A DNA stretch of 64,000 bases from Nitrospirota bacterium (GCA_963701855.1 CAVPBK010000002.1:1-64000), one strand, 5' to 3'; shown: positions 29,488 to 61,150, counted from the first letter of the stretch. Numbers and translations are program-made. Notes: generated by a model not told the origin, from the letters alone.

Positions 29488-29880
29488 GGTCTCACAGCCA
29501 GGGGAATCCCGACTGCGGCCGTCGAACGAGCACTGATTCATCGTGCGCGTTCCGGGAGCAAAGGGATGCCCTGGCTGCGAGACCCTCCCTTCACTGCCAC
29601 CCCGACAAAATCTTTTCAGTCTCCTTCTCCCTTTCCCAACTCGTGGCGAGGTGGCGGGATGGGCGGATCAGCTTCTACTGCGCGCATCGACCGAGCACAT
29701 TCTGATCGTGCGCGGTCTGCGAGCAAAGAAGCTGGCCGCCTGACTCACGCGCTTGCATCGCACGACCATCTTTCAGCTTTTGCCTCTTTCACCCTCCCAG
29801 GCCGGCAGGGAGGAGCAGCCCTCAAGTGCGCGCGTCGGACGAGCGCCTTCTGAGCGTGCGCGTTCCGCGAGCAAGGAGGT
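29488..29880 (+). repeat. Cluster of three family-A bulged-hairpin elements (cores 29514-29560, 29679-29725, 29827-29873)
   Basis: Core TGC-G-NNNN-TC-NNNCG-A-stem-loop-G-CGNNN-NNNN-A-GCA with compensatory changes. Confidence 0.85.
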
Positions 29881-29891
29881 CCCCCTCTCCC

Positions 29892-30275
29892 TCACTGCCA
29901 CCCCGTCACCTCATATCCCTTCTCAATCAAACATCGCACCACCGCATCGGCGTATGGAGGATCTGGCTCAAGCGGCCTGTAGGCGCCGCCAACTGAACCG
30001 ATGATGACTCCGAGTGCGCCACCGACTGCCGCCCCAATCGTCACGCCCGCCACTCCACCGATGAGTCCGCTCGATGCCCCTACTGCGGCGCCACTAATCA
30101 GACCCAGCCCGGCTCCAGCCGCCACGTTACCACTTCGGCTTTCGACGTCAGGCTTCAACCCGGCCGCTTCGGCCTTCTGCTGACACATGATCACTTCAAG
30201 TTTCGCCGCCTCCCGCCCCTGCAGTTGAAACTTCGCATTCGACCGCAACATCGGTTCCGGCCCCGCACAGGCCAC
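29892..30275 (-). CDS. Glycine-zipper lipoprotein (5' end possibly frameshifted)
   Basis: LVAC lipobox region, GxxxG-rich segment, C-terminus CLIEKGYEVTGWQ shared with the next gene. Confidence 0.75.
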   Translation of the reverse strand: MACAGPEPMLRSNAKFQLQGREAAKLEVIMCQQKAEAAGLKPDVESRSGNVAAGAGLGLISGAAVGASSGLIGGVAGVTIGAAVGGALGVIIGSVGGAYRPLEPDPPYADAVVRCLIEKGYEVTGWQ

Positions 30276-30472
30276 AAGACTGAAAACTAAACCAGCCGTA
30301 ACGATGGCCTGAAACTATCCTCAGATCTCTCCACTCCCATCTAGTCAGCAGGAGCGGCTACTCCGCTTCAATCGCAAGGATAGTGGGGTTGGGCTCCACT
30401 GCGTGCCCCATTCTCACTTACCCACTCCTTCTCCCACCTCATGACGGTGGCGGGAAGGGCGGAGACTTCTAC

Positions 30473-30519
30473 TGCGCGCGTCGAACGAGCACATTCTGAT
30501 CGTGCGCGTTCCGCGAGCA
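30473..30519 (+). repeat. Family-A hairpin core
   Basis: tgcgcgcgtcgaacgagcacattctgatcgtgcgcgttccgcgagca. Confidence 0.85.
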
Positions 30520-30544
30520 AGGAAGCTGGCCGCCCGTCTCGCCT

Positions 30545-30976
30545 TCATTGCCAGCCCGTCACCTCATACCCCTTTTCTTGCAAGCATCGATTCACGAAGT
30601 TCGTGTAGGCCTGATTCGGTTGCGACGGACCAGCGACGGCGTGGTACAACCCGATCAGCAATCCCCATACCGCCCCAGTCGCTGCCCCGATCATGGAACC
30701 GCGGCCTACTGAGCCTGAGATGGCTCCACCGACCGCCCCAGCTGCCGCGCCGATTCCGCCACCCACTACGGTGCCAGTCGCAACACGACCGGCCTTTCCA
30801 CTGCCTTCTTCAGCCCCTGCCGATTCTGCCAACTTTTTACAGTCTTCGATATCCTGCCCCGCTGCCTCTTTCCCCACCGACTGCATATGCGCATTGGGAT
30901 ACAGAATAGGATGTGCCGTCGAACAGGCGGTGAGCAAGAGCAATCCCCCGACGATGGAAAGACCCCTGTGCCTCAT
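30545..30976 (-). CDS. Glycine-zipper lipoprotein
   Basis: LTAC lipobox, GGGIGAAAGAVGG, CLQEKGYEVTGWQ. Confidence 0.85.
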   Translation of the reverse strand: MRHRGLSIVGGLLLLTACSTAHPILYPNAHMQSVGKEAAGQDIEDCKKLAESAGAEEGSGKAGRVATGTVVGGGIGAAAGAVGGAISGSVGRGSMIGAATGAVWGLLIGLYHAVAGPSQPNQAYTNFVNRCLQEKGYEVTGWQ

Positions 30977-31293
30977 GATTTCGCCGATCTCTTTTCATCT
31001 CCAAGGTTCAAGCGAGTCATGACCAGCTGCGCGGTGGCCCCTTTTACGAGCACACGTTTATGTCGTCCGCCTGCACCGGAATGAATCTGCACCGATGAAG
31101 AAGGAATTGATAATCGGCGGGCTAGAAATCGGATCAATTCGTCGTTGGCCGCGCCATCAACCGGTGGAGCGGCCACTCTGATTTTGATCGCATCGCCGTG
31201 AAGGCCCACGCACTCTGTGGAGGAGGCTTTCGGTTGGACGTGAACGGTCAGGATCGCTCCGTCTTCGGTATCCTGCACGATCAGCGCATTCAT
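30973..31293 (-). CDS. DUF167 / YggU family protein
   Basis: LTVHVQPKAS, KIRVAAPPVDGAANDELIRFLA, G..GRHKRV. Confidence 0.9.
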   Translation of the reverse strand: MNALIVQDTEDGAILTVHVQPKASSTECVGLHGDAIKIRVAAPPVDGAANDELIRFLARRLSIPSSSVQIHSGAGGRHKRVLVKGATAQLVMTRLNLGDEKRSAKS

Positions 31294-31321
31294 CCGCGAC
31301 AGGGGACTCCCAGCCATAGGA

Positions 31322-32137
31322 TCAAAAAATGGCCTTCACCAATTCCAGAATGCTGCGCTGCATATCGGGGTCGTCGGTGATCGGGCGGGCAATCGCAACA
31401 TCACAGGCCCGGTCGGTCGCCACGCCTTGCCGAATAAGTGTCCCGGCATAGATCAGCAATCTGGTGCTGACGCCTTCTTCCAAACCATGATTCTTGAGGT
31501 TCCGCACCTTTCCACCGAGCTTCACCAAGCTGGCAGCAAGATCACGGCTGACCCCTGCTTCCCGCTCGACTACGGTGGTTTCGACGTCAGGTGCCGGATA
31601 GTTAAACTCAATCGCCATGAAGCGTTGCTTCGTGCTTTGCTTCAAATCCTTGAGTACGCTCTGGTACCCGGGGTTATAGGAAATCACCAGAAGGAAGTCG
31701 TCGGCCGCTTCGAGAATCTGGCCTTTCTTTTCAATCGGCAGGAAGCGGCGATCATCGCTCAGGGGATGGATGATGACCGTCGTGTCCTTCCGCGCCTCAA
31801 CGATTTCGTCCAAATAGACGATCGCGCCATGCTTCACGCCGAGTGTCAGCGGCCCATCGACCCAGACCGTCTCTTGCCCTTTGAGCAGATACCGCCCCAC
31901 AAGATCGGATGCAGTGAGATCTTCGTGGCAGGCCACCGTGATCAAAGGACGACCAAGCCGGTAGGCCATATGCTGAACAAATCGGGTCTTGCCGCAACCG
32001 GTCGGCCCCTTGAGCATAACCGGCATCTTGCTATTCGCGGCGATCGTGAACAAACCGATCTCGCCACGGACCTCCGCATAAAACGGCTCTCGCTCGATCC
32101 GATACTGTCCAACGTCAACTTCGCGTCCTTGCTGCAT
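31322..32137 (-). CDS. CbbQ/NirQ/NorQ family AAA+ ATPase
   Basis: [49 protein letters not shown]. Confidence 0.95.
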
Positions 32138-32373
32138 CGCTGTGTCTCTCTGGTCTATTTCGTCTAATTAGTTTAGTTGGTTCAGTGCGGCCACGATAAA
32201 CGGAACCGAGGTTGAAGATCAAGCGATGCGGCCTGGATATCAAAACACTGACAAGCAGGCGGCCTTCCGATTTCTCATGCCTGTCTTGGAGGGAGTGGCC
32301 AAGGCTGCCCTTTACTGTGCACATCGAACGAGCACCTTTTGAGTATTTACTCTTTTCTCCTGTCACCCTCTCA

Positions 32374-32470
32374 GGTCTCGCAGCCAGGGCAATCCCGACT
32401 GCGGCCGTCGAACGAGCACTACTTCATCGTGCGCGTTCCGGGAGCAAAGGGATGCCCTGGCTGTGAGACC
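32374..32470 (+). repeat. Family-A hairpin (core 32400-32446) with outer stem nearly identical to that at 29488
   Basis: ggtctcgcagccagggcaatccc ... gggatgccctggctgtgagacc. Confidence 0.85.
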
Positions 32471-32480
32471 GCCCCCCCTG

Positions 32481-35400
32481 TTAGGCGGCGGCCTTCACAC
32501 TGTCCAGCACTTCGCGCACCTTTTGCGCCAGCGCGGGTGGTGAAAAGGGCTTCGGCAGAAACCCGATCTGACGATTTATACCACCTTGGTCGAACACCGG
32601 ATGATCCGGGTACCCCGACATGTAGAGCACTTTAATCTCTGGCCGGACGGTCAGGATCTTCTCCGCGACCTCAGGCCCGCTCATCTGTGGCATAACGACA
32701 TCCGTCAACAACAGATGGATGGGCCCCATGTATTTTGCGCTGGCGAGGAGGGCTTCGATGCCATGACGCGCCTCCAGCACCGTATAGCCTTGAAGCCGCA
32801 ACGTCTCGTGCACGAGACCGCGAACCGCCGGCTCATCCTCGACCAAAAGAATCGTTTCTCTGCCATGTGCCGGATCAATCGCTTCGACCGCCCCGGTCGG
32901 CCCCAGTACCTCTTGTTCGACCCGTGGAAAGTAGATCCGGAACGTCGTGCCTCGATCGGGAGCACTTTCCACAAAGATGCTCCCTCCGCTCTGCTTGACG
33001 ATGCCATAGACGGTCGAGAGTCCCAGTCCCGTCCCTTTTCCTTTTTCCTTCGTCGTGAAGAACGGCTCGAACAGATGCGACCGGGTCTCAGCATCCATCC
33101 CATGACCGTTATCACGAACCGCCAATAACACATACGACCCCGGCGCCAGCCCCACAGCGTCCAGGCTTGCATCATTCTCAATCGTCACATTCGTGGTTTC
33201 AATCGTCAGGCGCCCGCCCTTGGGCATCGCATCACGCGCATTGACCACCAGGTTCATAATGACCTGCTCGATCTGTCCAGGATCCGCCTTGATGGCGCCA
33301 GCCGACGCATCAAGTTCGGCGCTGAGTTCGACGATATCTTCACCGATGAGGCGCCGCAACATGCCGTCCATATTGGTCACAAGGGCATTGAGATCGAGAA
33401 CTTTCGCCGCGATGAACTGACGTTGGCTGAACGCCAATAATTGACGGGTTAGCCCGGAGGCCCGATCCGCAGCTTTCTTCACCTCCTCCATGTCCTTCCG
33501 CATGGCGTCGGTGGGGCCCAAACGACCCAAGAGCAACTCGCTGTACCCTCGAATCACCGTGAGGAGATTATTGAAATCGTGCGCCATGCCGCCGGCCAAT
33601 CGCCCCACCGCCTCCATCTTCTGCGCCTGTCGCAATTGCGCCTCGGTTTCCCGTAACACCCCTTCCGTTCTAGCCCGCTCGCAAAATTGGCCGATCTTGA
33701 GACCGATGTCTTCCACCATCCTCAACAACTCGTCATCGGGCTGCCTTACCGAATGACTGAAGAGTTCGATGACTCCCTCAATCTCATGCCCTACTAGAAC
33801 AGGAAATCCAACGGCCCCGTGAAGCCCGACTTGTCGAGCCAGCGCTCCGCGAGTGAAATGAGCATCCATCGTGACGTCCGTCACCCAAGCCGACTTGCCG
33901 CTGCTCCAAATACGTCCGGGCAAATCTTCGCCGCGTGTAAACCCACGTTGCAAGGTGTCCAGGGTAAATGGATCGGCCTGCACTGACGGCGCCTTCCACT
34001 GATCGAAGCAACGCAGTACCCCGGTCGCCTTATCCACCCGCCAGAACACGCCCAGGTCCCACTCCAGGCTCTCCCCGATGGCCTGAATGATTTTCGGGAC
34101 AGCTTCTTCCAGGGTCGTCGCCTCGGCGAGAACTCGGGTCACTGCATACTGAGAGGCGAGACGCCGTTCAGCCCGGCGGCGGTCGGTGATGTCCCGGATA
34201 AAGGCGCTGAAGATGTACGCATCCCCTATTTTTGCCGGTGACACCGCAAGTTCAGCGGGAAGCTCCCGTCCGTTTCTATGTTGGGCAACAATTTCAATCC
34301 GGCGGTTCAAAATTGTTCCATCTCCCGTACGAAGGAATTCACGGATGCCATGTTCAAACGCCTGACGATCCCGCTCAGGAATAATAGTTTTAGTAAGGGC
34401 CCGCCCCAGCGCTTCCTCGCGGGACCATCCAAAGATCGCCGTGGCCTGTGCATTCCAATCGGTCACCATCCCCGTCGAATCGATAGTGATCACCCCGTCA
34501 AGCGCGGTATCGACGATGGCCCGATTTCGTTCCTGGCTCTGGAGCAACGCGGCTTCAGCGGCTTTTGCCCAGGCACTTTCCTGTTGTGCCTGTCGATGCT
34601 CTGCGCGCAATCGTGTCGTGGCCCAGAACAACAGCCCCAGCATGGGAATCAAGACCACCCCGCCGGCAATCCCAACTTTCCATAAAAAGGCATGAATAGG
34701 CGCCAGGATGTCCTGTCGATCCATTCGCACCAAGACCGACCAGCCCAGCCCAGCAAATTCTCCAAAGCCCCTGGTCTGCGCGTAGCCAGTCACCACCTGA
34801 ACGTGCCGTTGCAGGTGCTCTTCCTCGATAAACCCCGGCACACCGGTCTCGCTCAGCAGCACCGAAGGGAGTCTAAGCTCTTTGAGACTGATGGCACCTT
34901 TGTGGAGCAGATCTGAGTCGACAAACACCCTGCCCTGCTTCGTCAACATTTGGTACTCGATTCGTTCCCCCGCTTCTGCTCCTGGTCGAGACTCAAGTGA
35001 GCGAATAGTTCTGGTAGTAACTTCCTCCAAAAATGGGACTCCCACTTGCAAATTCACTACACCCAGGAACGTGTCATGCGAGTCGAGAATCGGCGCCGTA
35101 AACGCGATGATGTCTACACTACTCTCCCCGGTATCCTGTACCGCAACATCGGCAATGTCGAGTCGTCGCGTCGCACGCGCAGCGATAAACGATGTGGCAC
35201 GGCTATAGTCACGCCCTACCAGCGCGGGCTCCGTCGACGCCACGACCGTACCTTGAACGTCCATAACCGCTAACGACAGGTAACCCGGGGCATATGTCGT
35301 CTTCATCCATTTCAGATATTCGGAAAGATATGTCGGATCGGAAGTGCGCAACGAAACGGCTCGAGCCAGCATGAGAGCGTCACCCTGGCGTTCGAATAGC

Positions 35401-35597
35401 ATCCGGTCGAGTTTCTCGGCCACTTCCGCCGCGGCCAGTGTGAGTTCTCCTCCTGTCGTCTCCACGAGGCGAGATTCGACAAACCGAATCAGCCCGATAC
35501 CGACGAGGACCGCGAATAGGGTCATGGCGATCAGGAGATGAGGCAACCACCGATAGCGGCGACGGTCGAGAAATGATACGGCCATTGCGGTCTTCAT
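32481..35597 (-). CDS. Hybrid sensor histidine kinase (TM-Cache-TM-PAS-GAF-HisKA-HATPase-REC)
   Basis: AHDFNNLL, NLVVNARDAM, FEPFFTTK, GTGLGL; REC ILLVEDE/TDVVMP. Confidence 0.95.
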   Translation of the reverse strand: MKTAMAVSFLDRRRYRWLPHLLIAMTLFAVLVGIGLIRFVESRLVETTGGELTLAAAEVAEKLDRMLFERQGDALMLARAVSLRTSDPTYLSEYLKWMKTTYAPGYLSLAVMDVQGTVVASTEPALVGRDYSRATSFIAARATRRLDIADVAVQDTGESSVDIIAFTAPILDSHDTFLGVVNLQVGVPFLEEVTTRTIRSLESRPGAEAGERIEYQMLTKQGRVFVDSDLLHKGAISLKELRLPSVLLSETGVPGFIEEEHLQRHVQVVTGYAQTRGFGEFAGLGWSVLVRMDRQDILAPIHAFLWKVGIAGGVVLIPMLGLLFWATTRLRAEHRQAQQESAWAKAAEAALLQSQERNRAIVDTALDGVITIDSTGMVTDWNAQATAIFGWSREEALGRALTKTIIPERDRQAFEHGIREFLRTGDGTILNRRIEIVAQHRNGRELPAELAVSPAKIGDAYIFSAFIRDITDRRRAERRLASQYAVTRVLAEATTLEEAVPKIIQAIGESLEWDLGVFWRVDKATGVLRCFDQWKAPSVQADPFTLDTLQRGFTRGEDLPGRIWSSGKSAWVTDVTMDAHFTRGALARQVGLHGAVGFPVLVGHEIEGVIELFSHSVRQPDDELLRMVEDIGLKIGQFCERARTEGVLRETEAQLRQAQKMEAVGRLAGGMAHDFNNLLTVIRGYSELLLGRLGPTDAMRKDMEEVKKAADRASGLTRQLLAFSQRQFIAAKVLDLNALVTNMDGMLRRLIGEDIVELSAELDASAGAIKADPGQIEQVIMNLVVNARDAMPKGGRLTIETTNVTIENDASLDAVGLAPGSYVLLAVRDNGHGMDAETRSHLFEPFFTTKEKGKGTGLGLSTVYGIVKQSGGSIFVESAPDRGTTFRIYFPRVEQEVLGPTGAVEAIDPAHGRETILLVEDEPAVRGLVHETLRLQGYTVLEARHGIEALLASAKYMGPIHLLLTDVVMPQMSGPEVAEKILTVRPEIKVLYMSGYPDHPVFDQGGINRQIGFLPKPFSPPALAQKVREVLDSVKAAA

Positions 35598-37162
35598 GAT
35601 TCACGCATCGGGAAGGCCACGAAGTTGGAAATCAGCATGGTGGGATGATAGGCCTGTTTCGATGCACGCAACCCGGGAAGACCTGCATCGTCCATTGCAT
35701 TGATGTATTCGGCCCCTTCCGTCATGGCAGTCCGACAGGTCTCCCGAAATAAATACTGCGCCAGACCCGGAAGAGCCCGATCCGTCACCTCTAAGAGGAC
35801 ACAGAATGTTGTGCTCGTCAACCAATAGCCGAATGTATAGGCACACAGCCGGCCCTGAATCCGGATGATCCTCGCCGTGACACGAAGGTCCGACGCCTGC
35901 GACCAGAGAACTTCATGGGCCGACGACGCATCGGCCAACAGCATGCCCCCAAACAATTCGAGCCCTTTCGCTTGCTTCTGCCGCGACCAATCCCCTAGGA
36001 GGGCACGACAGTCCTGACGATCACCAATCTGATAGGAGTTCATCTCAAAGGACTGCTCTCGTTCGAATCGATTGCATAGGGCGCGTTGAGACTTATATCG
36101 ATCGCCTGCCAAGGCTGCGAGGTCCGTCACACGATACAAGTAGTCCGGCTCCTTGGGCATCACACGATACCCCAGCCGCTCCAACTCCGGTACCAACTGG
36201 GAAGACACGTTCTCAACTCGGCTGACTGCCGAGTCACCATTCCATCGCCGCAGCAGTCCCATCGCGTCAAACAGGGGTGCGTCGATCGAGTGGGCTCCGA
36301 TCGGAGGCAGGGGCATGAACCAGCCGTCCGGCGATTGCGCGAAGAGGCAAAAAGCTCCATGAAGCTCCATCCACCAATAGGCCAATAATCCATTCCACAT
36401 GTAGTGATAGGCTGGCGAATAGGCCGCGAGCGACTGAGGGCCGCATAACTCAGACCGATCCAATGCCGTCGTCATGCGTGGGATATCGTCCAGTGTAAGC
36501 CGACGCAGCGGCGCAGGCCCCCACTGACCAGCCACGGCTTCGGTGAGGCGCGGAAGAAGGGTGAGCACCACCACGTCCTCTTGAAACCGCCCGATAAGAC
36601 GAGGATGCGCGACAACATGGTCCCGGATGTCCGGTCGATCAAGCAAGGCCCTCACCCGATCGGCATGACGCTGAATCTCCGATGGAATCTCCTCTCGCAT
36701 GAACGGACATTTCGTATCCCACCCCAGCAACACCTGCTCCTGCGGCTCATCCCACATCAGCGCCAAAGGATAGAGCTGACAATCAAACGGACGCTGCTCA
36801 TATATACGACAGGTTGAGGTCGCTGTTTCGAATGCCGGACAGAGATACCCGCCTCCGTGAGGCTCGGGAGCCAGGATTACCTGTGCCCCCCGCCGATTGG
36901 GAAAGGCCGTTTCCTCAACGCCCCCGGCCAGGGCCCAGGCGATTTCGTTCTCGGTAAAATACGGACGAAGGGCGCTGTCGGGGTCCGGAAATCGGCAACA
37001 GACATCGCACTGGAGACAGGTGCGGCTCGGCACGAGTTGTGGCAGTACAATCGGTGATGTCACGGAATCGCCTACCCGCTCATCAGTATGTGATATGCAG
37101 ACATAAAAAGGAATCCAATTGGTGTGCGCCCATACTAGCATCCTTCCATAAGAAGTGCCCAA
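35594..37162 (-). CDS. Fusion of a YkgJ-type Cys-cluster domain and a DUF2156 (MprF-C-like GNAT) domain; true start probably ~37063
   Basis: CLQCDVCC...CPAF...CRIYEQRPFDCQLYP...CP, then DYLYRVTDLAALAGDRY...YINAMDDAGLPGLRASKQAYHP. Confidence 0.8.
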   Translation of the reverse strand: MGTSYGRMLVWAHTNWIPFYVCISHTDERVGDSVTSPIVLPQLVPSRTCLQCDVCCRFPDPDSALRPYFTENEIAWALAGGVEETAFPNRRGAQVILAPEPHGGGYLCPAFETATSTCRIYEQRPFDCQLYPLALMWDEPQEQVLLGWDTKCPFMREEIPSEIQRHADRVRALLDRPDIRDHVVAHPRLIGRFQEDVVVLTLLPRLTEAVAGQWGPAPLRRLTLDDIPRMTTALDRSELCGPQSLAAYSPAYHYMWNGLLAYWWMELHGAFCLFAQSPDGWFMPLPPIGAHSIDAPLFDAMGLLRRWNGDSAVSRVENVSSQLVPELERLGYRVMPKEPDYLYRVTDLAALAGDRYKSQRALCNRFEREQSFEMNSYQIGDRQDCRALLGDWSRQKQAKGLELFGGMLLADASSAHEVLWSQASDLRVTARIIRIQGRLCAYTFGYWLTSTTFCVLLEVTDRALPGLAQYLFRETCRTAMTEGAEYINAMDDAGLPGLRASKQAYHPTMLISNFVAFPMRES

Positions 37163-37414: not shown

Positions 37415-37438
37415 TAGGCCTCGAATGAGGGGCTCTCT

Positions 37439-41745: not shown

Positions 41746-42129
41746 ATGCCGCCAGAACCAACCAACGAGCCGGAGCGACGCGAGCCGGAGGAAGACTCCG
41801 GGGGTGACAACCAGTTGCGTGTCGCCGGAATGATCGTGGGCATTGCCCTCATTTTTCTCGGGTTCCTCGACATATTTCTCTCGATCAGCGGAGGATTCGA
41901 GATCGACGTCATTCCTTTCATGATTTATTTCGCGGGCGTCGCCGTGTGGGCAAACTCGGTCGTCGAAAATGTGACTTTCCGCTACAGCCTTATCGGCGGG
42001 GCCCTCCTACTTGCAGCCCTCTTCTACCACTTTGGGGAAGTCCTCTTCTGGCACAAGCAAGTGTTGTTTTGGTCCACCGTGGTGGTCGTGATGTATTTCA
42101 TGTTCAACGAACCGAAAAAACACAGCTGA
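41746..42129 (+). CDS. Small integral membrane protein
   Basis: Four hydrophobic segments. Confidence 0.75.
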   Translation: MPPEPTNEPERREPEEDSGGDNQLRVAGMIVGIALIFLGFLDIFLSISGGFEIDVIPFMIYFAGVAVWANSVVENVTFRYSLIGGALLLAALFYHFGEVLFWHKQVLFWSTVVVVMYFMFNEPKKHS

Positions 42130-42264
42130 TTGAAGCCCGGTCTGTCTGGTTCATTTGGTCTATCTGGTTTGTCTGATTCATCTGGCTAGGTTCGTTTAAC
42201 CAAACACACGAGACAGACCGAATAGACGAGAGAGACCGAACAGACCAATTACGGCTAATGAGTC

Positions 42265-42978: not shown

Positions 42979-42981
42979 CCC

Positions 42982-43740
42982 ATGAAGCAGCCTTCCTCTC
43001 CATCATCTGAAACCTCGCGCCTGGCGCCTCACACGGCTCTCGTGATCTTCGCTAAGGCTCCGATCCCTGGCGAGGTGAAGACGCGGCTCTGCCCGCCGCT
43101 GACGCCTGACGAGGCAGCCACCCTGCACGGTAGCTTCGTCCTCGACATGTTGGAACGGACCAAACTCGCTGTTGCAAAACTTCAACTCCCCTTTCATCGG
43201 TACCTGGCCTGTGCGCCTTCTTCCGAGCTGGTGTTTTTCAAAATTATGGAAGAACGACAGGGCGTCCGCCTGTTGGATCAAGTAGGAGAGAATCTGGGCC
43301 AGCGGATGCACCGCACTTTTGTCGACTTATTCGCCAAAGGCTATACGCAAGTGATCATCGTGGGGACCGATGTCCCAACCTTGCCCATGACGGTCTATCA
43401 AGAGGCGTTCGCGATATTGGGCCGCTCAGGTGTGGTCTTGGGGCCAGCCCTTGATGGAGGGTACTACCTGATTGGCCTCACGCAGCCAGCAGAACAACTC
43501 TTTACCGGGGTACCCTGGTCCACCGATCAAGTCCTCGCCGTCACACAACAACAGGCCAAGATGCTGGGTTTGTCTATCGAACTCACCACCGCATGGCGCG
43601 ACGTGGATACGATCGCAGACTTGCAGGCGCTCATCACAGAGTGCCGAGAAGACGACAAGAAGCCCAGGCAAGACCGGACCTTCTCCATGCGAACAGCCGG
43701 CACATTGCAGCTGCTCGAGACTAGACTCAAAACTCGATAA
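42982..43740 (+). CDS. TIGR04282/DUF2064-type transferase (CofC-like fold)
   Basis: IFAKAPIPGEVKTRL, NLGQRM, IVGTDVP, LGPALDGGYYLIG, WST, DVDT..DL. Confidence 0.9.
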   Translation: MKQPSSPSSETSRLAPHTALVIFAKAPIPGEVKTRLCPPLTPDEAATLHGSFVLDMLERTKLAVAKLQLPFHRYLACAPSSELVFFKIMEERQGVRLLDQVGENLGQRMHRTFVDLFAKGYTQVIIVGTDVPTLPMTVYQEAFAILGRSGVVLGPALDGGYYLIGLTQPAEQLFTGVPWSTDQVLAVTQQQAKMLGLSIELTTAWRDVDTIADLQALITECREDDKKPRQDRTFSMRTAGTLQLLETRLKTR

Positions 43741-43780
43741 GATAGACAATCAATTACACCAACCACGGAAGGGATCATCT

Positions 43781-44515
43781 ATGGCAGAGCGAGTGGCCCT
43801 CATTACTGGTGGGGCCAGAGGTATCGGACGTGGGATCGCACTCGACCTGGCGGCACAACAGTGGTCGGTCGCCATCTGCTACCGAACGAGCGAAGCAGAA
43901 GCAAGAGCCACAGCCGACGCCATCACCAGCCATGGAGGTCGTGCGCTCTCGATTCGCTGTGACGTGTCGGACCCCCTAGCGGCCAAAGGCCTCGTGGCCC
44001 AAGTCGAACAGCAGTGGGGACGGATCGATGCGCTGATCAACGGCGCAGGACCATACCATCGCGTGAACCTGTTCGACGAAACGGTCGAGGGCTGGAACGA
44101 GATGTTCAACGGCAACCTCCATCCCATTTTCTATCTCGCCAAAGCAGTGGCACCGGGAATGAAAGCTCGCAAATCCGGGCGCATCATCAGCTTCAGCATG
44201 GCCAACGCCGATCAAATGGTATCTCAGCCGGACGTCACGGCCCATTACATCGCCAAGGCCGGCGTCTTGATTTTGACTCGCACGCTGGCCAAACTCCTGG
44301 CGCCTCATGGCATTACCGTCAATGCGATCTCGCCCGGCTTCATCGATTCAGGCAGCGCGCCGCCGGGAGAATTAGCCGGCATGACTAAGCGCATCCCCGC
44401 CGGGTACATCGGAACCGTAGACGATACCGTAGCTGCCGTACGCTATCTTCTCAGCGACGAAGCCCGATACGTAAATGGAGCAAACATCCAAGTCAGCGGT
44501 GGCTGGGGAATATGA
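43781..44515 (+). CDS. Short-chain dehydrogenase/reductase
   Basis: TGGARGIG, NGAG, HYIAK (YxxxK-like), VNAISPG. Confidence 0.92.
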   Translation: MAERVALITGGARGIGRGIALDLAAQQWSVAICYRTSEAEARATADAITSHGGRALSIRCDVSDPLAAKGLVAQVEQQWGRIDALINGAGPYHRVNLFDETVEGWNEMFNGNLHPIFYLAKAVAPGMKARKSGRIISFSMANADQMVSQPDVTAHYIAKAGVLILTRTLAKLLAPHGITVNAISPGFIDSGSAPPGELAGMTKRIPAGYIGTVDDTVAAVRYLLSDEARYVNGANIQVSGGWGI

Positions 44516-44521
44516 AGGGTA

Positions 44522-44605
44522 GCCTGAGGTGCCCTTCTTGCTCGCAGAACGCGCACATTCAGAAAGTGCTCGTTCGATGCGCGCAGTCAAAGGGCACTTC
44601 AGGCC
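44522..44605 (-). repeat. Family-A hairpin (core 44539-44585, reverse)
   Basis: Outer stem gcctgaggtgccctt/aagggcacttcaggc around the core. Confidence 0.85.
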
Positions 44606-44660
44606 ACTCTCTGGATGGAGTAAGGAGAAGCGACAAAGAGAAAGACTTGAAGGAGGCATC

Positions 44661-45065
44661 ATGAAAACAGAACAGGAACGGACTGCACACGCTCGGTTTG
44701 TCCAGGCCTTACAGCACGAACATCTGACGTGTGCCAAGCCTGGATGCGGCGGAGCGATGGACATCACCGACCACACCCCCCACCTCGCCCATATCAAGAC
44801 TTACGAAGCGGAATGCAAACAATGTCATACGAAGGAGCAGATTACCGGCAAAGAACAGCCGACCCCACCATGGGACAGCGCCTCGATCACGATGATGGCT
44901 GAAGTCCATCTCCTCCACGATCAACCCACATGCCCATTCGACGACACCCCCATCACCTTCACCTCCATGCCGAATCCCCGACGCAAAGCCCGTTACCGCC
45001 TCTCCTGCTTCTACTGCGGCCGCCACGCTGAACTGAATTGGCCGCCGGCGGAAGCAAAGAGGTGA
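44661..45065 (+). CDS. Hypothetical double zinc-ribbon protein
   Basis: CAKPGC, CKQC, CPFD, CFYC; AGGAGG RBS. Confidence 0.8.
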   Translation: MKTEQERTAHARFVQALQHEHLTCAKPGCGGAMDITDHTPHLAHIKTYEAECKQCHTKEQITGKEQPTPPWDSASITMMAEVHLLHDQPTCPFDDTPITFTSMPNPRRKARYRLSCFYCGRHAELNWPPAEAKR

Positions 45066-45094
45066 GGGGAGGCGGGGCAAGCATGTTGATTCTT

Positions 45095-45141
45095 TGCTCC
45101 AGGAACGCGCGCCCTGAGAAGGGCCGCGTTCGACGGCCGCA
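45095..45141 (-). repeat. Family-A hairpin core (reverse)
   Basis: tgctccaggaacgcgc...gcgttcgacggccgca. Confidence 0.75.
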
Positions 45142-45233
45142 GTAGAACCAATCATGGGTGTCGTTCCGAGAGAGAAAACACAAGCGAGCTTGGAGGGAGC
45201 ACTAACATTTTCTCGACACCCGATTTTTGCAAA

Positions 45234-45834: not shown

Positions 45835-46208
45835 CTCGGTTTGTGCAAGCCTTGCAACATGAACATCTAACCTGTGCCCAGCCCGGATGTGGCGGGGCAC
45901 AGGACGTCACCGACCACACCCCCCATCTCGCTCGTATCAAGACTTACGAAGCGGAGTGCAAACAATGTCATACGAAGGAGCAAATTACCGGCAAAGAACA
46001 GCCGACCCCGCCATGGGACAGCGCCTCGATCACGATGATGGCCGAAGTCCATCTCCTCCACGATCAACCCACTTGCCCCTTCGCTGACACCACCCATCGC
46101 CTTTACCTCCATGCCAAACCCCAGACACAAGGCCCGCTATCGCCTCTCCTGCTTCTACTGCGGCCGTCACCCTGAACTGAATTGGCCGCCGGCGGAAGCA
46201 AAAAGTAG
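45835..46208 (+). pseudogene. 5'-truncated, frameshifted second copy of the zinc-ribbon gene at 44661
   Basis: Colinear with ~44692-45065; +1 indel near 46090; lacks the first ~11 codons. Confidence 0.9.
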
Positions 46209-46234
46209 AGGGGATGGAGCCTGATGATCTCCTG

Positions 46235-46281
46235 TGCTCGCGCAACGCGCGGCCTCAGAAGGCCCTCGTTGGACGCGCGCA
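46235..46281 (-). repeat. Family-A hairpin core (reverse, CAACG variant)
   Basis: tgctcgcgcaacgcgcggcctcagaaggccctcgttggacgcgcgca. Confidence 0.8.
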
Positions 46282-46480
46282 GTGAGAGAATGACCAGACC
46301 GGCCCTGAGAAAAAGTAGAATGTCCTTGTGTTTTCACCCAAGTGCGGAATACCTCCGTGCAGTAAGTTCTGCTGAGAAGTATCTACTTCTTGCAAGAATC
46401 CCCAAATCCCATACACTCGGGTCTGTGCCCTCCTCAGGAATCTTCACTTTACGCGTAAAATACAGATTGGAGCGTTCATC

Positions 46481-47452: not shown

Positions 47453-47740
47453 CTAGCCCCGCTCACTGAGTCTCTGTAGGATGTCTTCGTACACTGTTTT
47501 GCGGTGCCGAATTCCTAGAATCCACACCGCATTCTCTTCGATCTTGTACACGACCCGATAGTCCCTTACGCGAAGCTTCCAGTAGCCTCTCAGGGTTTTT
47601 CGGAGCGGGGCCCCGTACTGGTGGGGAGCGTGAGTCAGTCGCGACTCGATTGCACCAGCTATTCTCCGATGGAGATTTTTTGGAATGCGAGGAATGTCTT
47701 CATCGGCAATGGCGGGATGGTATCGAAGCTCGAAGGGCAC
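47453..47740 (-). CDS. Type II toxin, RelE/ParE family
   Basis: YGAPLRKTLRGYWKLRVRDYRVVYKI...ILGIRHRKTVY. Confidence 0.9.
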   Translation of the reverse strand: MPFELRYHPAIADEDIPRIPKNLHRRIAGAIESRLTHAPHQYGAPLRKTLRGYWKLRVRDYRVVYKIEENAVWILGIRHRKTVYEDILQRLSERG

Positions 47741-47743
47741 TTA

Positions 47744-47933
47744 ACCCTCATTGTTCATGAAAGTTTCTGCTGCAATCGCCGATCCGCTGCTACAACGAAC
47801 CTCCGGCCGGCGGGCTCGCCCCTCGGATTCTCACCGTACTGCACAAGTACGCATCGGATCCTCACGGCTCCGCGCGCCGGTCTCGCGACGCGGCTCAGCG
47901 ATTTCGCGACGAACCGTCATGAATAATGCGGGT
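47744..47933. mobile_element. 190-bp MITE (family M) with TA target duplication between antitoxin and toxin
   Basis: TA|accctcattgttcatga...tcatgaataatgcgggt|TA; removal restores TAA-GTG juxtaposition. Confidence 0.82.
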
Positions 47934-48283: not shown

Positions 48284-48507
48284 GGAAGGGCACCTATGTT
48301 GGTCTACATGCGGCCGTCGAACAAGCACATTCTTATCGTGCGCGTCGGGAGCACAGGACCAACGTGGGTGCCTTCCCTTCCCTCCCCTCTCCCAAGCCGC
48401 TGAGTGATAAAATAACGAGGGCGTCTGTCGAGCTCTCGATTGCGCGCGTCCAACGAGGGCCTTCGGAGGCCGCGCGTTGCGCGAGCAGGAGAGTTTGGCA
48501 GACGCCC
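48284..48507 (+). repeat. Two family-A hairpins (cores ~48309-48353 and 48441-48487)
   Basis: Each core is enclosed by its own unrelated outer stem. Confidence 0.82.
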
Positions 48508-48532
48508 TTCTTACTCTTTCTTTTCGACTGCT

Positions 48533-48856
48533 CTATTTCCCGAATGCTTTTTTCAGCAGCGGCTCTATCTCCCCTTTGGCCGCCATTGGATCGAGGATGT
48601 CGGTATCGCCGTAGAACTGTCCGTCGATGAACACCTTGGGGAGGGTCGGCCAGTTAGTCATTTTTGCGAGCGCCTCTCGCTTGGTGGGTTGAGACAGGAC
48701 GTCAATAAGTTCATACGGGTACCCATACTTGTCGAAAAACTGCATCGTCTCTCTCGTGAACCCACACATCGGCATCAGTTTGGTGCCCTTGCCGTAGATC
48801 AAAATCTTGTGCGCGGCGACTTCCTTGTTAATTTCTTCTTGAATGGGATCTGCCAT
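48533..48856 (-). CDS. grxD: Monothiol glutaredoxin
   Basis: KGT..PMCGFT, NWPTLPKVFIDG.F.G..D. Confidence 0.9.
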   Translation of the reverse strand: MADPIQEEINKEVAAHKILIYGKGTKLMPMCGFTRETMQFFDKYGYPYELIDVLSQPTKREALAKMTNWPTLPKVFIDGQFYGDTDILDPMAAKGEIEPLLKKAFGK

Positions 48857-54275: not shown

Positions 54276-54719
54276 TTAGTCGAGAGATTCTTTCTCGACG
54301 GCCACAATCTGCTTGGCCCGGTGTGCGGAAAGATCACTGATGCTGCCCGGCAACTTCGGAAGCTCGTCGGACCAAGGGGTCACTCCCATGTCCGTCGCAC
54401 CTTGGAGTTTGGCGCCTTCTTCCATGATGAGTATCGGCGTCAGGATTTCTCCAATGAGCGTCGCCGTCTTCAGCAACTGGACTCGCTCGTTTGCGGTCAC
54501 CTTCGCCTTGATGCGACCGCTGCTGACCACCGTGCCGGCCGTAATCATTCCCTGCACCAATCCATCCTCGCCGATGATGACATGTCCCTTGGTCTGAATT
54601 TCTCCATCGAGGCGGCCATCGATCCGCACCGTTCCCTCAACATGGATCTGGCCTTTCAATACCACCCCTTTGGCCAAAAGGGTAATGTTGTCATCTCCTG
54701 CAAAGCTATTACTTTTCAT
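54276..54719 (-). CDS. Bactofilin (polymer-forming cytoskeletal protein)
   Basis: LKGQIHVEGTVRIDGRLDGEI...MEEGAKLQG. Confidence 0.9.
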   Translation of the reverse strand: MKSNSFAGDDNITLLAKGVVLKGQIHVEGTVRIDGRLDGEIQTKGHVIIGEDGLVQGMITAGTVVSSGRIKAKVTANERVQLLKTATLIGEILTPILIMEEGAKLQGATDMGVTPWSDELPKLPGSISDLSAHRAKQIVAVEKESLD

Positions 54720-54781
54720 GCGTCGTCCCCCCTTCACACCCGATCGTTGACGCCAGCTTACACCATTCCCTGTAGCGAGGC

Positions 54782-57079: not shown

Positions 57080-57199
57080 GGTTCTTAACCCTCACCACAG
57101 CATAACCGAAAAACAGACAGGTTCATCTGATTTATCTGGTTAGTCGGTCCAACCAAATAAACGAGACAAACCAAACAAACCAGAAGAGCCAATTGGATT

Positions 57200-58621
57200 T
57201 TACGCCTTACTCGTTCCGATCTTCTTCTGAGGCAGAAGCGAGCCAGCAATCATCCCTATCGCCGCCATGAGAAAACCGACCAGTTGTGGAGGCCACATTG
57301 AACCGGAGGGACCGAACAGTTCCAGCCCCAACCAGGTTATCAGCCCAGCGGCAAAGGCGCACAAGGCTCCTTGTGTCGTCGCTCGGGACCAAAAGAGCCC
57401 GGCACAGAGTGGAACAAAGGCCGACACCAGCGTCACCTTGTAGGTGTTCACGACCAGCTGGTAGATGCTAGAGCTGGAGATGAGTGCGACGGTCAGGACC
57501 AGGGCGGCAAAGATCACCACTACCAGCCGCATGACCCGAAGAAACTCTCGGTCAGTGAGGTGCGGCAGCGCTCCCTTGATCACGTTCTCGCTCAGTATCA
57601 CCGACGGGGCCAACAGCGTCGCGCTTGCACAGCTCATCACCGCTGAGAGGACGGCCCCGAAAAACAGGATCTGCGCGAAAACCGGTGTGTGATGCAGGAT
57701 CAAGGTCGGCAACACCAGCTGAGAATCCTGATCGAGAAGGGCAGTGAACAGAGCCGGATCGATCAGCGTCGCCGCATAGGCTAGAAACATCGGCACAAAA
57801 CAGAAACAGAAATAGAGCGTGCCCCCCAGCAGCGATCCGCGCACAGCCGTGCGTTCGTCCTTCGCCGAGGTGATGCGTTGAAACACGTCTTGCTGGGGAA
57901 TTGACCCCAACATCATCGTCATCCAGGCCCCGACAAAGGGAATCCAAGCCGCGAACGTAGCCGGAGGAAACAGTTCCAGCTTGCCGGCTTGGGCTGCATG
58001 GCTGATGACCACGTCCACGCCTCCGGCCAACCCACTCACCACGGAGGCGATATAGAGCAGCCCTCCCATAATCACGGAGATTTGGACAAAGTCCAGAATG
58101 GCGACGGAAAACATGCCGCCGAATGTCGTATAGGCCAGGACAATCACTGCGCCAATGATCATCCCGACTGGCTGACTCACTGCGCCTCCCGTGACTGAGT
58201 TCAGCACTAATCCAAACACTTTGAACTGCGCAGCCACCCATCCGAGGTAGGACGCTGCAATACATACGGCACAGAGGACTTCGACGACGCGATTGTACCG
58301 TAGACGATAGAAGTCGCCGATGGTCAAGAGATTCAGCCGATAGAAACGGGGAGCAAAGAATAATCCGACCAGGATCAAGCAGAGGCTCGACCCAAAGGGA
58401 TCGGCGATGACGCCTCGCAACCCTTCCTTCACGAACGTGGCCGAGATCCCGAGTACGGCCTCTGCTCCGAACCAGGTCGCAAAAACTGTGGCGATCACGA
58501 TCGGCAGCGGCAAGCTCCGACCGGCCACCGCAAAATCTTTGGTGGTATGGACTCGCCTGGCAGCAGCCAGTCCAATCCCAACCGACACAAGTAAATAGAG
58601 GGTAACGAATCCAAGAATCAT
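57200..58621 (-). CDS. Sodium:solute symporter family protein
   Basis: DFAVAGRSL, ATWFG, QQDVFQR, many TM helices. Confidence 0.92.
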   Translation of the reverse strand: MILGFVTLYLLVSVGIGLAAARRVHTTKDFAVAGRSLPLPIVIATVFATWFGAEAVLGISATFVKEGLRGVIADPFGSSLCLILVGLFFAPRFYRLNLLTIGDFYRLRYNRVVEVLCAVCIAASYLGWVAAQFKVFGLVLNSVTGGAVSQPVGMIIGAVIVLAYTTFGGMFSVAILDFVQISVIMGGLLYIASVVSGLAGGVDVVISHAAQAGKLELFPPATFAAWIPFVGAWMTMMLGSIPQQDVFQRITSAKDERTAVRGSLLGGTLYFCFCFVPMFLAYAATLIDPALFTALLDQDSQLVLPTLILHHTPVFAQILFFGAVLSAVMSCASATLLAPSVILSENVIKGALPHLTDREFLRVMRLVVVIFAALVLTVALISSSSIYQLVVNTYKVTLVSAFVPLCAGLFWSRATTQGALCAFAAGLITWLGLELFGPSGSMWPPQLVGFLMAAIGMIAGSLLPQKKIGTSKA

Positions 58622-58794
58622 GAAGGCAGTTTAGGCCCAGGTGTGAACGGATTCTAGCAGGATGCTGAAAAAGTCCGCCAGCATTCTGCAAGCATAATTG
58701 TCTTGAGCCCCACCGCGACATCGCATACCCTATGCAAGTCTAGGACTTGCGATATCAGGTCCGACGCAGTCACACATAAAAGAAAGGACAGCTC

Positions 58795-59478
58795 ATGCGC
58801 GTCATTGTCTCTTGTTTGGTAACCCTGCTCTGCCTTGGGACCACCTCGGCATTCGCTGCGGCGTCAGAGCCCACGACCGATGACCAAAAAACTCTCTATG
58901 CCTTGGGATTGGCCATCAGCCAATCGCTCGGGACCTTCAACCTGAACGAGTCCGAGCTCGATCTCGTAAAATCCGGCATCGCCGATGGGGTCTTCAAAAA
59001 GACTCCCAAGGTAGACCTCCAGACGTTCGGCCCCAAGATTCAGCAACTGCAACAGGCCCGTGCCTTGGTCGTTGCAGAAGCGGAGAAAAAAGCGGGGGCC
59101 GCGTTCCTCGCGAAAGCCGCAGCAGAATCCGGCGCCAAGAAAACTGAGTCCGGCGCAATCATCACGACGATCAAGGAAGGGACAGGCCCAACCCCGAAAG
59201 TCACGGACACGGTGAAGGTGCACTATCACGGAACTCTGACCGATGGAACCGTGTTCGATAGTTCCGTCAAGCGGGGCGAGCCGGCCACGTTCGGATTGAA
59301 TCAAGTGATCAAGTGTTGGACGGAAGGGGTCCAGCAGATGAAGGTCGGCAGCAAAAGCAAGTTGGTCTGCCCGTCCGCTATCGCCTATGGCGACAAAGGC
59401 GCGCCCCCCCAGATCAAGCCCGGCGCGACGTTAGTGTTCGAGGTCGAACTCCTCGAAATTGTCGCGGCTGCTAAGTAA
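58795..59478 (+). CDS. FKBP-type peptidyl-prolyl isomerase (FkpA/Mip-like)
   Basis: Signal peptide, [36 protein letters not shown]. Confidence 0.95.
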
Positions 59479-59500
59479 GTCCACACTGTCGTTCTCATGA

Positions 59501-59529
59501 GGTCGAGCGGGAGCATGTCCCGCTCGACC
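59501..59529 (+). terminator. Hairpin after FKBP copy 1 (homologous hairpin at ~60418-60444)
   Basis: ggtcgagcggga-gcatg-tcccgctcgacc. Confidence 0.65.
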
Positions 59530-59716
59530 TCACGTACTCACCCATTCCACGAAAAGCTGGGCCGTTAGCGCAATGAAGGAAACTTTCCTGTGAGATGAAC
59601 TCAGGCAGGCAAATTTGTCTTGATCCCCATCGCGACATCGCATAGTTTACAGAGTTTCGAGCCTTGTGATATCGATATCAAGTCCGCCGCAGCCACACAT
59701 AAAGAAAGGGCAGCTC

Positions 59717-60394
59717 ATGCGTTTCGTTGTCTCCTGCTTGGTGACCGTACTCAGCCTTGGAACCACTGCATCATTCGCAGCGACCCCAGAGCCCACAACC
59801 GATGAACAAAAAACCCTCTATGCCATGGGATTAACCATCAGTCAATCGATCGGCACCTTCAGCCTGAGCGAGGCCGAACTCGAGCTCGTGAAAGCCGGCA
59901 TCACCGATGGAGTATTCAAACGCCCCTCTAAAGTGGACCTCCAGACGTTCGGCCCGAAGATTCAACAACTGCAACAGGCCCGCGCCTCGGTCATCGCAGA
60001 ACCCGAGAAGAAAGCAGGCGCCGCGTTCCTTGCAAAAGTCGCAGCAGAACCCGGCGCCAAGAAAACCGAGTCCGGCGCGATCCTCAAGACCATCAAGGAA
60101 GGGAACGGTGCCACCCCGAAAATCACGGATATGGTGAAGGTGCACTATCAAGGAACCTTGATCGACGGGACAGTATTCGATAGTTCCACCAAGCTGGGTG
60201 AGCCGGCCATGATGAGAGTGAATGAAATGAGCAAGTGTTGGGTGGAAGGGATGCAGCAGATAAATGTCGGCAGCAAGAGCAAGTTGGTCTGCCCGTCGAG
60301 TCTCGCCTATCGAGACAAGGGCCGACCCCCCCTTATCAAGCCTGGTGCGACATTAGTGTTCGAGATCGAACTCCTCGAGATCGTAGCCAAGTAA
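59717..60394 (+). CDS. FKBP-type PPIase, tandem paralog with divergent active-site region
   Basis: Colinear with 58795-59478; EPAMMRVNEMSKCW and AYR replace [14 protein letters not shown] and AYG. Confidence 0.92.
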   Translation: MRFVVSCLVTVLSLGTTASFAATPEPTTDEQKTLYAMGLTISQSIGTFSLSEAELELVKAGITDGVFKRPSKVDLQTFGPKIQQLQQARASVIAEPEKKAGAAFLAKVAAEPGAKKTESGAILKTIKEGNGATPKITDMVKVHYQGTLIDGTVFDSSTKLGEPAMMRVNEMSKCWVEGMQQINVGSKSKLVCPSSLAYRDKGRPPLIKPGATLVFEIELLEIVAK

Positions 60395-60504
60395 CCCCTC
60401 ACCGAATCCTCAGTACGGTCGAGCGGGATATTCCCCCGCTCGACTTCGCATCCTTTTCTTCGCGCATCGAACGATCGATTCCCCCACTCTTTACCTGTAT
60501 CCAG

Positions 60505-61150
60505 TGAGGCGGCTGGTGTGGTCTCCATTGCGCACATTGAGCGGCCACTACTCTTTCATCTCTCCCTTGAGGACGGGCTAGATTGGTCTCCCACTGCGCG
60601 TGTCCAACGAGGGTCTTCCGAGACCGCGCGTTGCACGAGCACAGGAGACCATCTAGCCTGCCCTCTCATACTCCCTCCAAGCTCGCTCGTTCTCTCTTTA
60701 GGAATGGGGGCCGATTGAGCATCTACTGCGCGCTACTTTCTCACCCGCCCTGCCCTCCGATTACTTCGCAATCGATTTCCCAGGACGTGCCTTAGCCCGG
60801 GCGAGGGCCTTCAAATCCTCTTCATCTCTCGTTAAGGGAGTGGCCTAGGCTGCCCTTTACTACGCGCCACATTCTCACCCGCCCAACCACGAGTGCGCCG
60901 AGACGCGCTCTTCTCCCTGCCGAGCACAGTTTCACCGTGCGCGTTCTGCGAGCAAGAAGGGCACCTAACCGCTCTTTCCCGCTTTCTTTTGATCTCACGC
61001 ATTACACAAATACAACTATCTATCCTCCTGCCAAGCTCACTCGTATCCTCTCAGGGATGAGGGCTGATTGATCTTCTACTGCGCGCGTTCAACGAGGGCT
61101 TTCTTAAGCCGCGCGTTGCGCGAGCACGGAAGATCATCAGCCCCCATCCC
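60505..61150 (+). repeat. Cluster of family-A hairpins (full cores 60595-60641 and 61080-61126 plus partial copies)
   Basis: Same core with cgtg/cacg and caacg/cgttg compensatory pairs. Confidence 0.8.

Follow-up and report, generated by a model that had tools for sequence, protein, structure and literature searches.

The window analysed here is a stretch of 64,000 nucleotides (nt) from a Nitrospirota bacterium (GCA_963701855.1, CAVPBK010000002.1:1-64000), taken from a Nitrospira genome of 4,297,576 bases in 15 contigs; between positions 29,488 and 61,150 it contains twelve copies of a hairpin element with a conserved, bulged tip (the core, 47 nt), after whose low coordinate each copy is named. 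The hairpin family is a real and apparently undescribed relative of the repetitive extragenic palindromic (REP) sequences and miniature inverted-repeat transposable elements, or MITEs, of other bacteria. It probably represents a Nitrospiraceae-specific superfamily of non-coding REP/MITE-like palindromes, in which the whole hairpin is copied and the putative mobiliser is a protein other than a Y1 transposase. The initial annotation of the window had put the hairpins forward as a candidate new system; they are instead a new family within a familiar kind of repeat.

A search profile was built from the twelve cores, all of which were found at the coordinates and on the strands first reported for them (the minus-strand starts 44539, 45095 and 46235 being the low ends of the 47-nt cores), and the whole genome was scanned. 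The scan yielded 165 non-overlapping matches spread across 13 of the 15 contigs, 131 of them to the full profile (136 with a slightly looser cut). The window accounts for 14 matches, namely the twelve cores, a copy at 13186 and a partial match at 60921. For the exact 47-mer of copy 30473, 0.00 occurrences are expected by chance (100 shuffles of the window). No described Rfam family was matched: at the gathering score the window yielded only two tRNAs, and the segment 29300-32600 yielded no match with E <= 1. No description of the family was found in the open full-text literature on Nitrospira repeats (subscription journals and supplements being outside the scope of that search); one tool paper includes a Nitrospira genome solely in a count table and does not describe the hairpin repeats.

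A covariance model of the core comprised 52 nt and 13 base pairs and found 68 copies in 464 kb of the source genome. Among these model-aligned copies a G.A mismatch was retained in 65, a TC bulge in 60, an A.G mismatch in 64 and the model length of 52 nt in 59. Standard pairs made up 96.2% of the pair cells, compared with 87.7% after shuffling, and six of the 13 pairs had changed on both sides (e.g., G-C in 31 copies versus C-G in 25 at one pair, and G-C in 44 versus A-U in 15 at another). The observed covariation score was reached by none of 500 shuffles, and the pairing of the core was lost when the pairing partners were slid. These counts are per copy and not per independent event, the true number of independent events being smaller, and a good part of the core covariation consists of differences between subfamilies. 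Regarding 32 copies from four other genera, 95.8% of the positions were paired versus 85.6% after shuffling, again with changes on both sides at six of 13 pairs. The description of a shape-conserved family with near-fixed mismatches, bulge and length, originally drawn from the twelve window copies, thus holds for 68 copies, as does the covariation of its paired positions.

The tip also holds a TTCNNA-like loop, with a single TTCNNA where the loop is uninterrupted, and the most constant letters of the core are the unpaired ones. Since the mismatches and the bulge survive while the stems covary, the tip is probably constrained as a folded structure; the invariant unpaired bases, set against freely covarying stems, suggest that the folded tip is read by a putative protein. 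The mean folding energy was -60 kcal/mol, versus -39.7 kcal/mol for shuffled sequence. G-U pairs are alike on either folded strand (355 versus 415), and no preference for a folding strand was seen in the asymmetry of G-U versus A-C; the equal G-U share therefore marks neither RNA strand as the functional one.

The complete unit is about 95-140 nt long and consists, in this order, of a leader, a left stem arm, the tip of 47-52 nt, a right stem arm and a trailer, the two arms forming an outer stem of about 25 bp. On the strand that reads ACTGCG (109 copies), the leader of about 20 nt before the hairpin is 72% pyrimidine and 10% G, and the trailer of 12 nt after it is 82% pyrimidine and 7% G. Of the 136 full copies, 109 have an outer helix of at least 12 nt per side (median arm lengths 25 and 23 nt); in the window the arms reach at least 13 nt in 10 of 13 full copies. 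Clustering at 88% identity divided the 136 full copies into 88 clusters (sizes 19, 15, 7, 4, 3, 3, 2, 2 and 2, plus 79 singletons). The outer stems are variable yet complementary, as first described; that they are unrelated in all copies does not hold, since subfamilies exist, and the twelve window copies gave that impression because 136 copies split into 88 clusters.

For the three subfamilies with the most copies, the left and the right arm adjoin a core in 32/32, 35/35, 32/33, 30/34, 21/22 and 20/22 of their occurrences, those without a core being truncated copies or chance matches. The arms thus belong to the element, and there are no "empty" outer hairpins for a core to enter, and insertion of the core into pre-existing unrelated hairpins was rejected, as no subfamily arm lacks a core beyond truncations and chance matches. 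Near-identical hairpins occur in unrelated flanks (20-56% identity between the flanks of the most similar pairs). With many non-coding, mostly intergenic hairpin copies, the family has the properties of dispersed REP-like or MITE-like repeats in the broad sense. The ERIC/IRU, Correia, BOX and RUP repeats are imperfect palindromes as well; they measure 100-150 nt, lie in intergenic DNA that is transcribed and have variants that arose when fixed internal sites took up insertions, and for several of them no transposase is known. The Nitrospira element is like ERIC/IRU and MITE-like repeats in being a hairpin-shaped imperfect palindrome with internal-insertion variants; it differs from the four groups by the absence of terminal inverted repeats beyond the stem, by its asymmetric pyrimidine-rich leader and trailer and by its fixed tip mismatches.

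Copies also occur nested, arrayed or broken. The clearest nesting was found on contig C3 of the source genome (G000:C3, ~121336-121512), where a complete copy with leader and trailer lies inside the apical loop of another copy. Among 14 nested copies placed between both halves of a host tip (read by eye), TTC stands on both sides in ten and the same TTCY 4-mer in six. The flanking TTC is compatible with a target duplication of 3-4 bp and equally with an element that starts like its target. Head-to-tail copies join ..YCC to either TTCC.. or AAGC.., left halves outnumber right halves (199 versus 173), and many of the left halves that stand alone precede a complete copy. Chimeric copies were seen in the window (copy 46235) and in one congener at the 60.6-61.1-kb locus. 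A kilobase-scale insertion between a left and a right half, as in an autonomous version, was not convincingly found in the source genome.

Regarding distribution, an exact-pattern scan with one genome per species gave at least 125 stretches; among the matches listed, 79 of 80 titles name Nitrospira, the Nitrospiraceae or the order or phylum to which they belong, and the remaining title is simply that of an uncultured bacterium. The covariance model detected the family in 56 of 62 genomes of the Nitrospiraceae and in all eight genomes of the source genus, seven of which have at least 39 scored copies; positive genomes numbered 1/62, 7/21 and 0/5 in three sister families. In a phylum-wide draw, 16 of 18 Nitrospiraceae genomes were positive versus none of 132 others. 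The sister-family matches sit in fragmented metagenome-assembled genomes (MAGs), and two are nearly identical to source-genome subfamilies. In one such MAG (G061) the near-identity extends to the arms. Judged from this resemblance, the near-identical copies suggest possible contig contamination rather than true presence.

Six orthologous spacers were compared with congeners. The presence/absence polymorphism that the initial annotation had named as a check on its proposal was seen, together with replacement. Behind the histidine-kinase gene starting at 32481, seven congeners are without a copy and have other hairpin elements or a MITE there. In the spacer behind the short-chain dehydrogenase/reductase (SDR) gene ending at 44515, three congeners share the left half, each with a copy of a different subfamily at the stop codon, and these copies end at the same boundary. 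The 700-nt array at 60.4-61.2 kb is represented in one congener by just one, chimeric copy, whose left arm resembles that of 60595 and whose right arm resembles that of 61080, and in another by different copies; the distal boundary is the same. The left outer arm of copy 48441 is kept at the orthologous site of two congeners, in one of which the apical stem of the copy has changed but still pairs, and an inner pair is compensated. Two loci on other contigs were also compared; immediately behind the stop codon, the hairpin family differs from species to species or is missing. Copies are thus partly vertically inherited and partly replaced, and several hairpin families have their hot spots at the gene ends of this genus.

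Mobility of the element is inferred because of the nesting, the unrelated flanks and the replacement at orthologous sites. In the mechanism proposed, the copied unit would be the whole hairpin and not the core alone. Within a genome, copies would spread and supplant one another through transposition in trans, through recombination and gene conversion among copies, or through both; insertion would take place at TTC, in the loops as well as at the ends of existing copies, copies would accumulate with the trailer side against stop codons, and a putative non-Y1 protein would read the folded tip.

A better-known route would be a REP/REPIN-type or IS200/IS605-derived element moved by a Y1 (HUH) transposase that binds the bulged single-stranded hairpin. 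Y1 transposases recognise bulged imperfect hairpins with conserved unpaired bases, and the shape of the Nitrospira element agrees with this, as does a mild replication-strand bias (92 copies versus 40 have their ACTGCG strand on the C-rich, lagging-sequence strand). The asymmetric lengths of leader and trailer may be comparable to the geometry of IS608. Four Y1_Tnp matches were found in the source genome. Three are 149-amino-acid (aa) IS200 transposases within 550-bp elements; these were rejected as a source, the end hairpins of all three being unrelated to the core. The fourth is a 229-aa protein resembling REP-associated tyrosine transposases (RAYT), encoded at G000:C11:87040-87726, which scored 73.6 bits against the 80-bit cut-off of NCBIfam REP_Tyr_transpos. 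It was rejected as a partner: the nearest copy is 28 kb away, no hairpin or inverted repeat lies beside the gene within 1.5 kb on each side, and the protein family does not co-occur with the element across genomes. When scored at E <= 1e-10 across 150 genomes of the order, the RAYT-like family was absent from the copy-rich genomes G001, G082 and G140 (at least 39 scored copies each), G142 (32) and G039 (20), and present in 12 of 16 genomes of a genus in which none of the 16 has an element match. The Pfam Y1 model PF01797 had no match in four copy-rich genomes of 99-100% completeness and matched one weak fragment in a fifth.

The architecture likewise departs from that of known Y1-dependent repeats. 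The REP and bacterial interspersed mosaic elements and the REPIN-RAYT systems of Enterobacteria, Pseudomonas and Stenotrophomonas resemble the Nitrospira element as short, extragenic, imperfect palindromes that number hundreds per genome and occur in clusters and mosaics; REP and REPIN sequences are also lineage-restricted, with long vertical inheritance and a position at 3' gene ends. A REPIN consists of two inverted REPs at the base and a variable spacer at the tip, which is not the layout found here: the base is conserved and the tip variable in REPINs, whereas the Nitrospira element has a conserved tip on a variable base. According to the accessible text of PMC3337134, the variable hairpin part of REPIN spacers stays self-complementary. 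The Nitrospira element further differs from REPIN-RAYT systems by having no copy-flanked RAYT, no Y1 co-occurrence and no abundant identical master sequence, and from REPINs by its self-nesting at the loop TTC. The ends of IS200/IS605 elements and PATEs are alike in their subterminal imperfect hairpins with extrahelical bases and unequal hairpin-to-end distances, and IS200/IS605 also in that the 5' flank of the Nitrospira element resembles its own 3' end (..YCC) and in the replication-strand bias. IS200/IS605 elements differ in having separate left-end and right-end hairpins instead of one long hairpin; most copy-rich genomes are without Y1, the IS200 of the source genome has other hairpins, and no TnpB was found. 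Mobilisation by a Y1 enzyme is accordingly considered improbable, and the HUH/RAYT mechanism suggested initially was not borne out, as copies do not lie beside Y1 genes and four of five copy-rich genomes are without a PF01797 match.

The other mechanism suggested initially, an integron attC-like or other tyrosine-recombinase site that marks gene cassettes, can be given hardly any weight. Like attC sites, the copies are shape-defined, imperfect hairpins with extrahelical bases behind genes in a fixed orientation, and the 5' arm of one subfamily fits the consensus RYYYAAC; the 3' arm does not fit GTTRRRY, so that the core consensus is half present. The best match to the integron integrase model TIGR02249 in the source genome reached 80.8 bits versus a cut-off of 265 bits. 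The copies form no cassette arrays and are dispersed on 13 of 15 contigs behind ordinary housekeeping genes, and their sequence is conserved, not their shape alone.

Among further candidates, IS110 was rejected as the mover, as copies are not near these elements and three of five copy-rich genomes are without them. Other multi-copy DNA of at least 400 bp comprised an 8-copy IS3-family element and various gene repeats, none of which shares the hairpin ends. A classical MITE has terminal inverted repeats like those of an insertion sequence and a target-site duplication; no insertion sequence of the source genome shares ends with the element, and the TTC on both sides of ten of 14 nested copies would be compatible with a duplication of 3-4 bp. 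The IS3-family element is about 1,255 bp long (G000:C14:28576-29827 and seven other sites), and two of its copies adjoin IS200 copies. Pfam searches of 21 open reading frames (ORFs) between neighbouring copies gave no match for ten and ordinary families for 11 (AlgH, GFA, MFS, FGE-sulfatase, peptidase, Ppx, UvrD etc.), with no recombinase among them. As to vehicles, plasmids and phages yielded no blastn match and IMG/VR no exact pattern match.

The position of the copies relative to genes was determined with crude longest-ORF calls, repeats being masked. The statement that ten of the twelve window copies lie just 3' of a gene in one relative orientation was reproduced, the ACTGCG strand being antisense to the gene and copies 60595 and 61080, which are sense, being the exceptions. 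A 3'-UTR RNA motif, also suggested initially, is possible; given this antisense placement, the transcripts of most copies would correspond to the reverse complement of the strand drawn at first. Such a position raises the strongest rival explanation, that the host uses the element as a stop-codon-adjacent 3'-end hairpin, be it a factor-assisted terminator, an mRNA stabiliser or a ribosome-stalling element. This role overlaps with that of a mobile repeat and may be complementary to it, in which case mobility would be only how the copies arrived; as an explanation of its own it is possible, although the less likely of the two.

The polarity at gene ends speaks for such a role. In 56 of 136 full copies the 3' end of the core has a stop codon of an opposite-strand ORF at most 50 nt away, versus a same-strand stop at most 50 nt from its 5' end in just 6 of 136, counts that rest on the crude ORF calls; the foot of the hairpin overlaps the stop codon or lies at most 15 nt away in 33 of 136. 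Full copies between co-directional genes have the ACTGCG strand antisense in 49 cases and sense in 16, and 40 of the 125 occupied spacers are convergent, compared with 653 of 3,818 spacers overall. Unrelated hairpin families occur at the same orthologous stop codon in different species, and canonical terminator-like sites are not enriched, numbering 17 in 20 kb of the window versus 16.9 +/- 4.7 in shuffles. None of these 17 sites covers a whole copy; one (32295-32308, plus strand) lies within an orphan left half at 32268-32345. Transcript data consisted of contigs from four metatranscriptome runs of mixed Nitrospira populations, in which depth over repeats sums all copies. One contig (32422-32594) connects copy 32400 with the kinase gene's 3' end, a weak point in favour, as the contig is strandless and DNA carry-over is possible.

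Parallels exist in the TRIT motif (Tuberculosis Rho-independent terminator; Gardner et al. 2011, PMC3152330) and in stop-proximal REPs of E. coli, which, according to the accessible part of PMC12306157, stall ribosomes when located at most 15 nt from the stop codon. As far as the accessible text of PMC3152330 goes, TRIT comprises 147 conserved palindromic copies at gene termini of Mycobacterium with a narrow spacing to the stop codon, and a binding factor has been proposed; it resembles the Nitrospira element in having about 150 copies per genome, in one lineage, at gene ends and without a classical U-tract. It is set apart by its description there, which contains no nesting, variable-stem subfamilies or leader and trailer, and by being a described terminator, whereas termination is only a candidate role for the Nitrospira element.

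Several observations argue against a purely host-serving hairpin. No U-tract stands beside the hairpin on either strand, the flanks being of C/T-rich composition on one strand (G/A-rich on its complement) and devoid of T runs, so that the element is not an intrinsic terminator in the sense of a G+C-rich hairpin followed by a U-tract. The G-U counts give no RNA-strand signature. Divergent spacers, too, hold copies (24 of the 125 occupied spacers), and some copies are sense, nested or fragmentary. A confounding factor for the orientation bias is the replication-strand bias of 92 versus 40 copies: at lagging-strand genes the orientation is even (9 antisense versus 11 sense), and gene polarity and replication-strand bias are therefore inseparable in the present data.

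The interpretation as a mobile REP/MITE-like superfamily with a non-Y1 mobiliser is still regarded as probable, and four points weigh against it. None of 9,180 hairpin pairs is at least 99% identical and three reach 97%, and this scarcity of near-identical pairs means that there is no sign of a recent burst. The six spacers gave no clean pair of filled and empty sites that would fix the exact ends, all being replaced or rearranged. The candidate-enzyme scans found no autonomous partner or cognate enzyme. Finally, vertical inheritance of some copies across species together with the stop-codon polarity fits host selection as well as mobility.

The copies in the window illustrate this range of forms. 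On the plus strand, three tandem copies stand behind the gene 29892-30275 (minus strand). The first (29488-29584, core 29514-29560) is a full copy with a hairpin of 97 nt and arms of 26 and 24 nt, and the second (29646-29756, core 29679-29725) a full copy with a hairpin of 111 nt and arms of 33 and 31 nt; the third (29820-29879, core 29827-29873) has a full core with a short, clean outer helix of 7 and 6 nt, and its 3' side extends to the stop codon of the gene. The top-scoring full copy (30449-30543, plus strand, hairpin of 95 nt, core 30473-30519) ends 2 nt short of the stop of a Gly-zipper gene (30545-30976, minus strand). The full copy at 32374-32470 (plus strand, 97 nt, core 32400-32446) lies 10 nt from the stop of the histidine-kinase gene (32481-35597, minus strand); directly upstream of it, at 32268-32345 on the plus strand, is the orphan left half of an older copy with leader, left outer arm and left core arm (partial profile match at 32314-32343).

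Three copies are on the minus strand. The full copy at 44515-44611 (97 nt, core 44539-44585) contacts with its foot the stop codon of the SDR gene (43472-44515, plus strand). Another full copy (45082-45156, 75 nt, arms of 15 and 13 nt, core 45095-45141) follows an ORF at ~44652-45065 (plus strand), and the copy at 46228-46287, behind the ORF 45843-46175 (plus strand), has a full core (46235-46281) with poorly paired, chimeric outer arms, the left and the right one coming from different subfamilies. The segments 44692-45146 and 45835-46287, each of about 455 nt with a small ORF and a hairpin copy, share at least 85% identity, the result of gene and element having been duplicated locally and not of transposition.

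The remaining copies are on the plus strand. A copy whose 3' core arm has a small deletion (48284-48377, hairpin of 94 nt, core from 48309) precedes a full copy (48413-48513, 101 nt, core 48441-48487) located 20 nt from the stop of a glutaredoxin gene (48533-48856, minus strand). Two further full copies with hairpins of 97 nt are found at 60569-60665 (core 60595-60641), sense to the FKBP gene 59666-60394 (plus strand), and at 61054-61150 (core 61080-61126). Between them lies a composite (60676-60976) of an orphan left half with small hairpin modules starting with TTCTCACCCGCCC, followed by an interrupted copy whose left core arm is split by the same module (partial profile match at 60921-60956). 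A lower-scoring copy at 13186-13237, outside the range of the twelve, adjoins a tRNA gene.

The TTCTCACCCGCCC module, which continues into a GC hairpin of about 20 nt, occurs at 87 sites genome-wide (in the window at 60737 and 60871). It lies inside the left arm of cores at 26 of the 87 sites and is also nested in itself; the others lie mostly inside a palindromic element with CAGGATGCT(C/G)AAAAAG-type ends. On contig C3, the segment G000:C3:1-68395 contains self-matching blocks broken by gaps of 116-295 nt, and these first 68 kb may have arisen through inverted duplication of a large segment or as an artefact of assembly.

Other repeats and conserved sites were noted in the same intergenic regions. 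A MITE of 192 nt at 47741-47932 has terminal inverted repeats and TTAA on both flanks, and each of the five congeners searched has many copies of about 85-90% identity. In three runs, contigs from RNA libraries go straight from 47740 to 47933 with the MITE absent, and the insertion is therefore polymorphic in natural populations. A long hairpin at 42130-42250, with arms of tandem units of about 7 nt (GGTCTGT-like), stands just behind the gene 41746-42129; it is another dispersed family, since many contigs from other loci end there, and hairpins like it replace the studied element at orthologous sites of congeners. A palindromic MITE-like element at G000:C4:83985-84400 (L157:3985-4400) has an end, CTAGCAGGATGCTGAAAAA, that overlaps the TAG stop codon of the upstream gene. 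The same overlap of CTAGCAGGATGCTGAAAAA and TAG occurs in one congener, and the element is missing from two others, whose stop codon is TAA. Upstream of a CbbQ/NirQ/NorQ-like AAA gene (31322-32137, minus strand), a stretch of 36 nt (32192-32227) is nearly invariant in eight compared congeners, the rest of the spacer being not alignable among them; by its conservation it may serve as a site of regulation or as a leader RNA.

A more far-reaching, rather doubtful possibility is that a guild of Nitrospiraceae hairpin elements, of which the present family would be the most conserved, is moved by a non-Y1, tip-reading enzyme and has been co-opted as the main 3'-end signal (for termination or stabilisation) where classical terminators are scarce; if so, different hairpin families would replace one another at the same gene ends. 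Nitrospira comprises key nitrite oxidisers and comammox organisms, of which gene-end signals and mobile DNA are little known. With about 10^2 copies per genome, the repeats lead to broken short-read assemblies, chimeric contigs (as seen at the joints of metatranscriptome contigs) and false ORF extensions, and they drive deletions and chimeras between copies. As the unpaired tip is kept while the stems covary, and as unrelated families share stop-adjacent sites, the hairpin family is a tractable case for finding the protein that would read such hairpins and for testing the recruitment of mobile hairpins as terminators.

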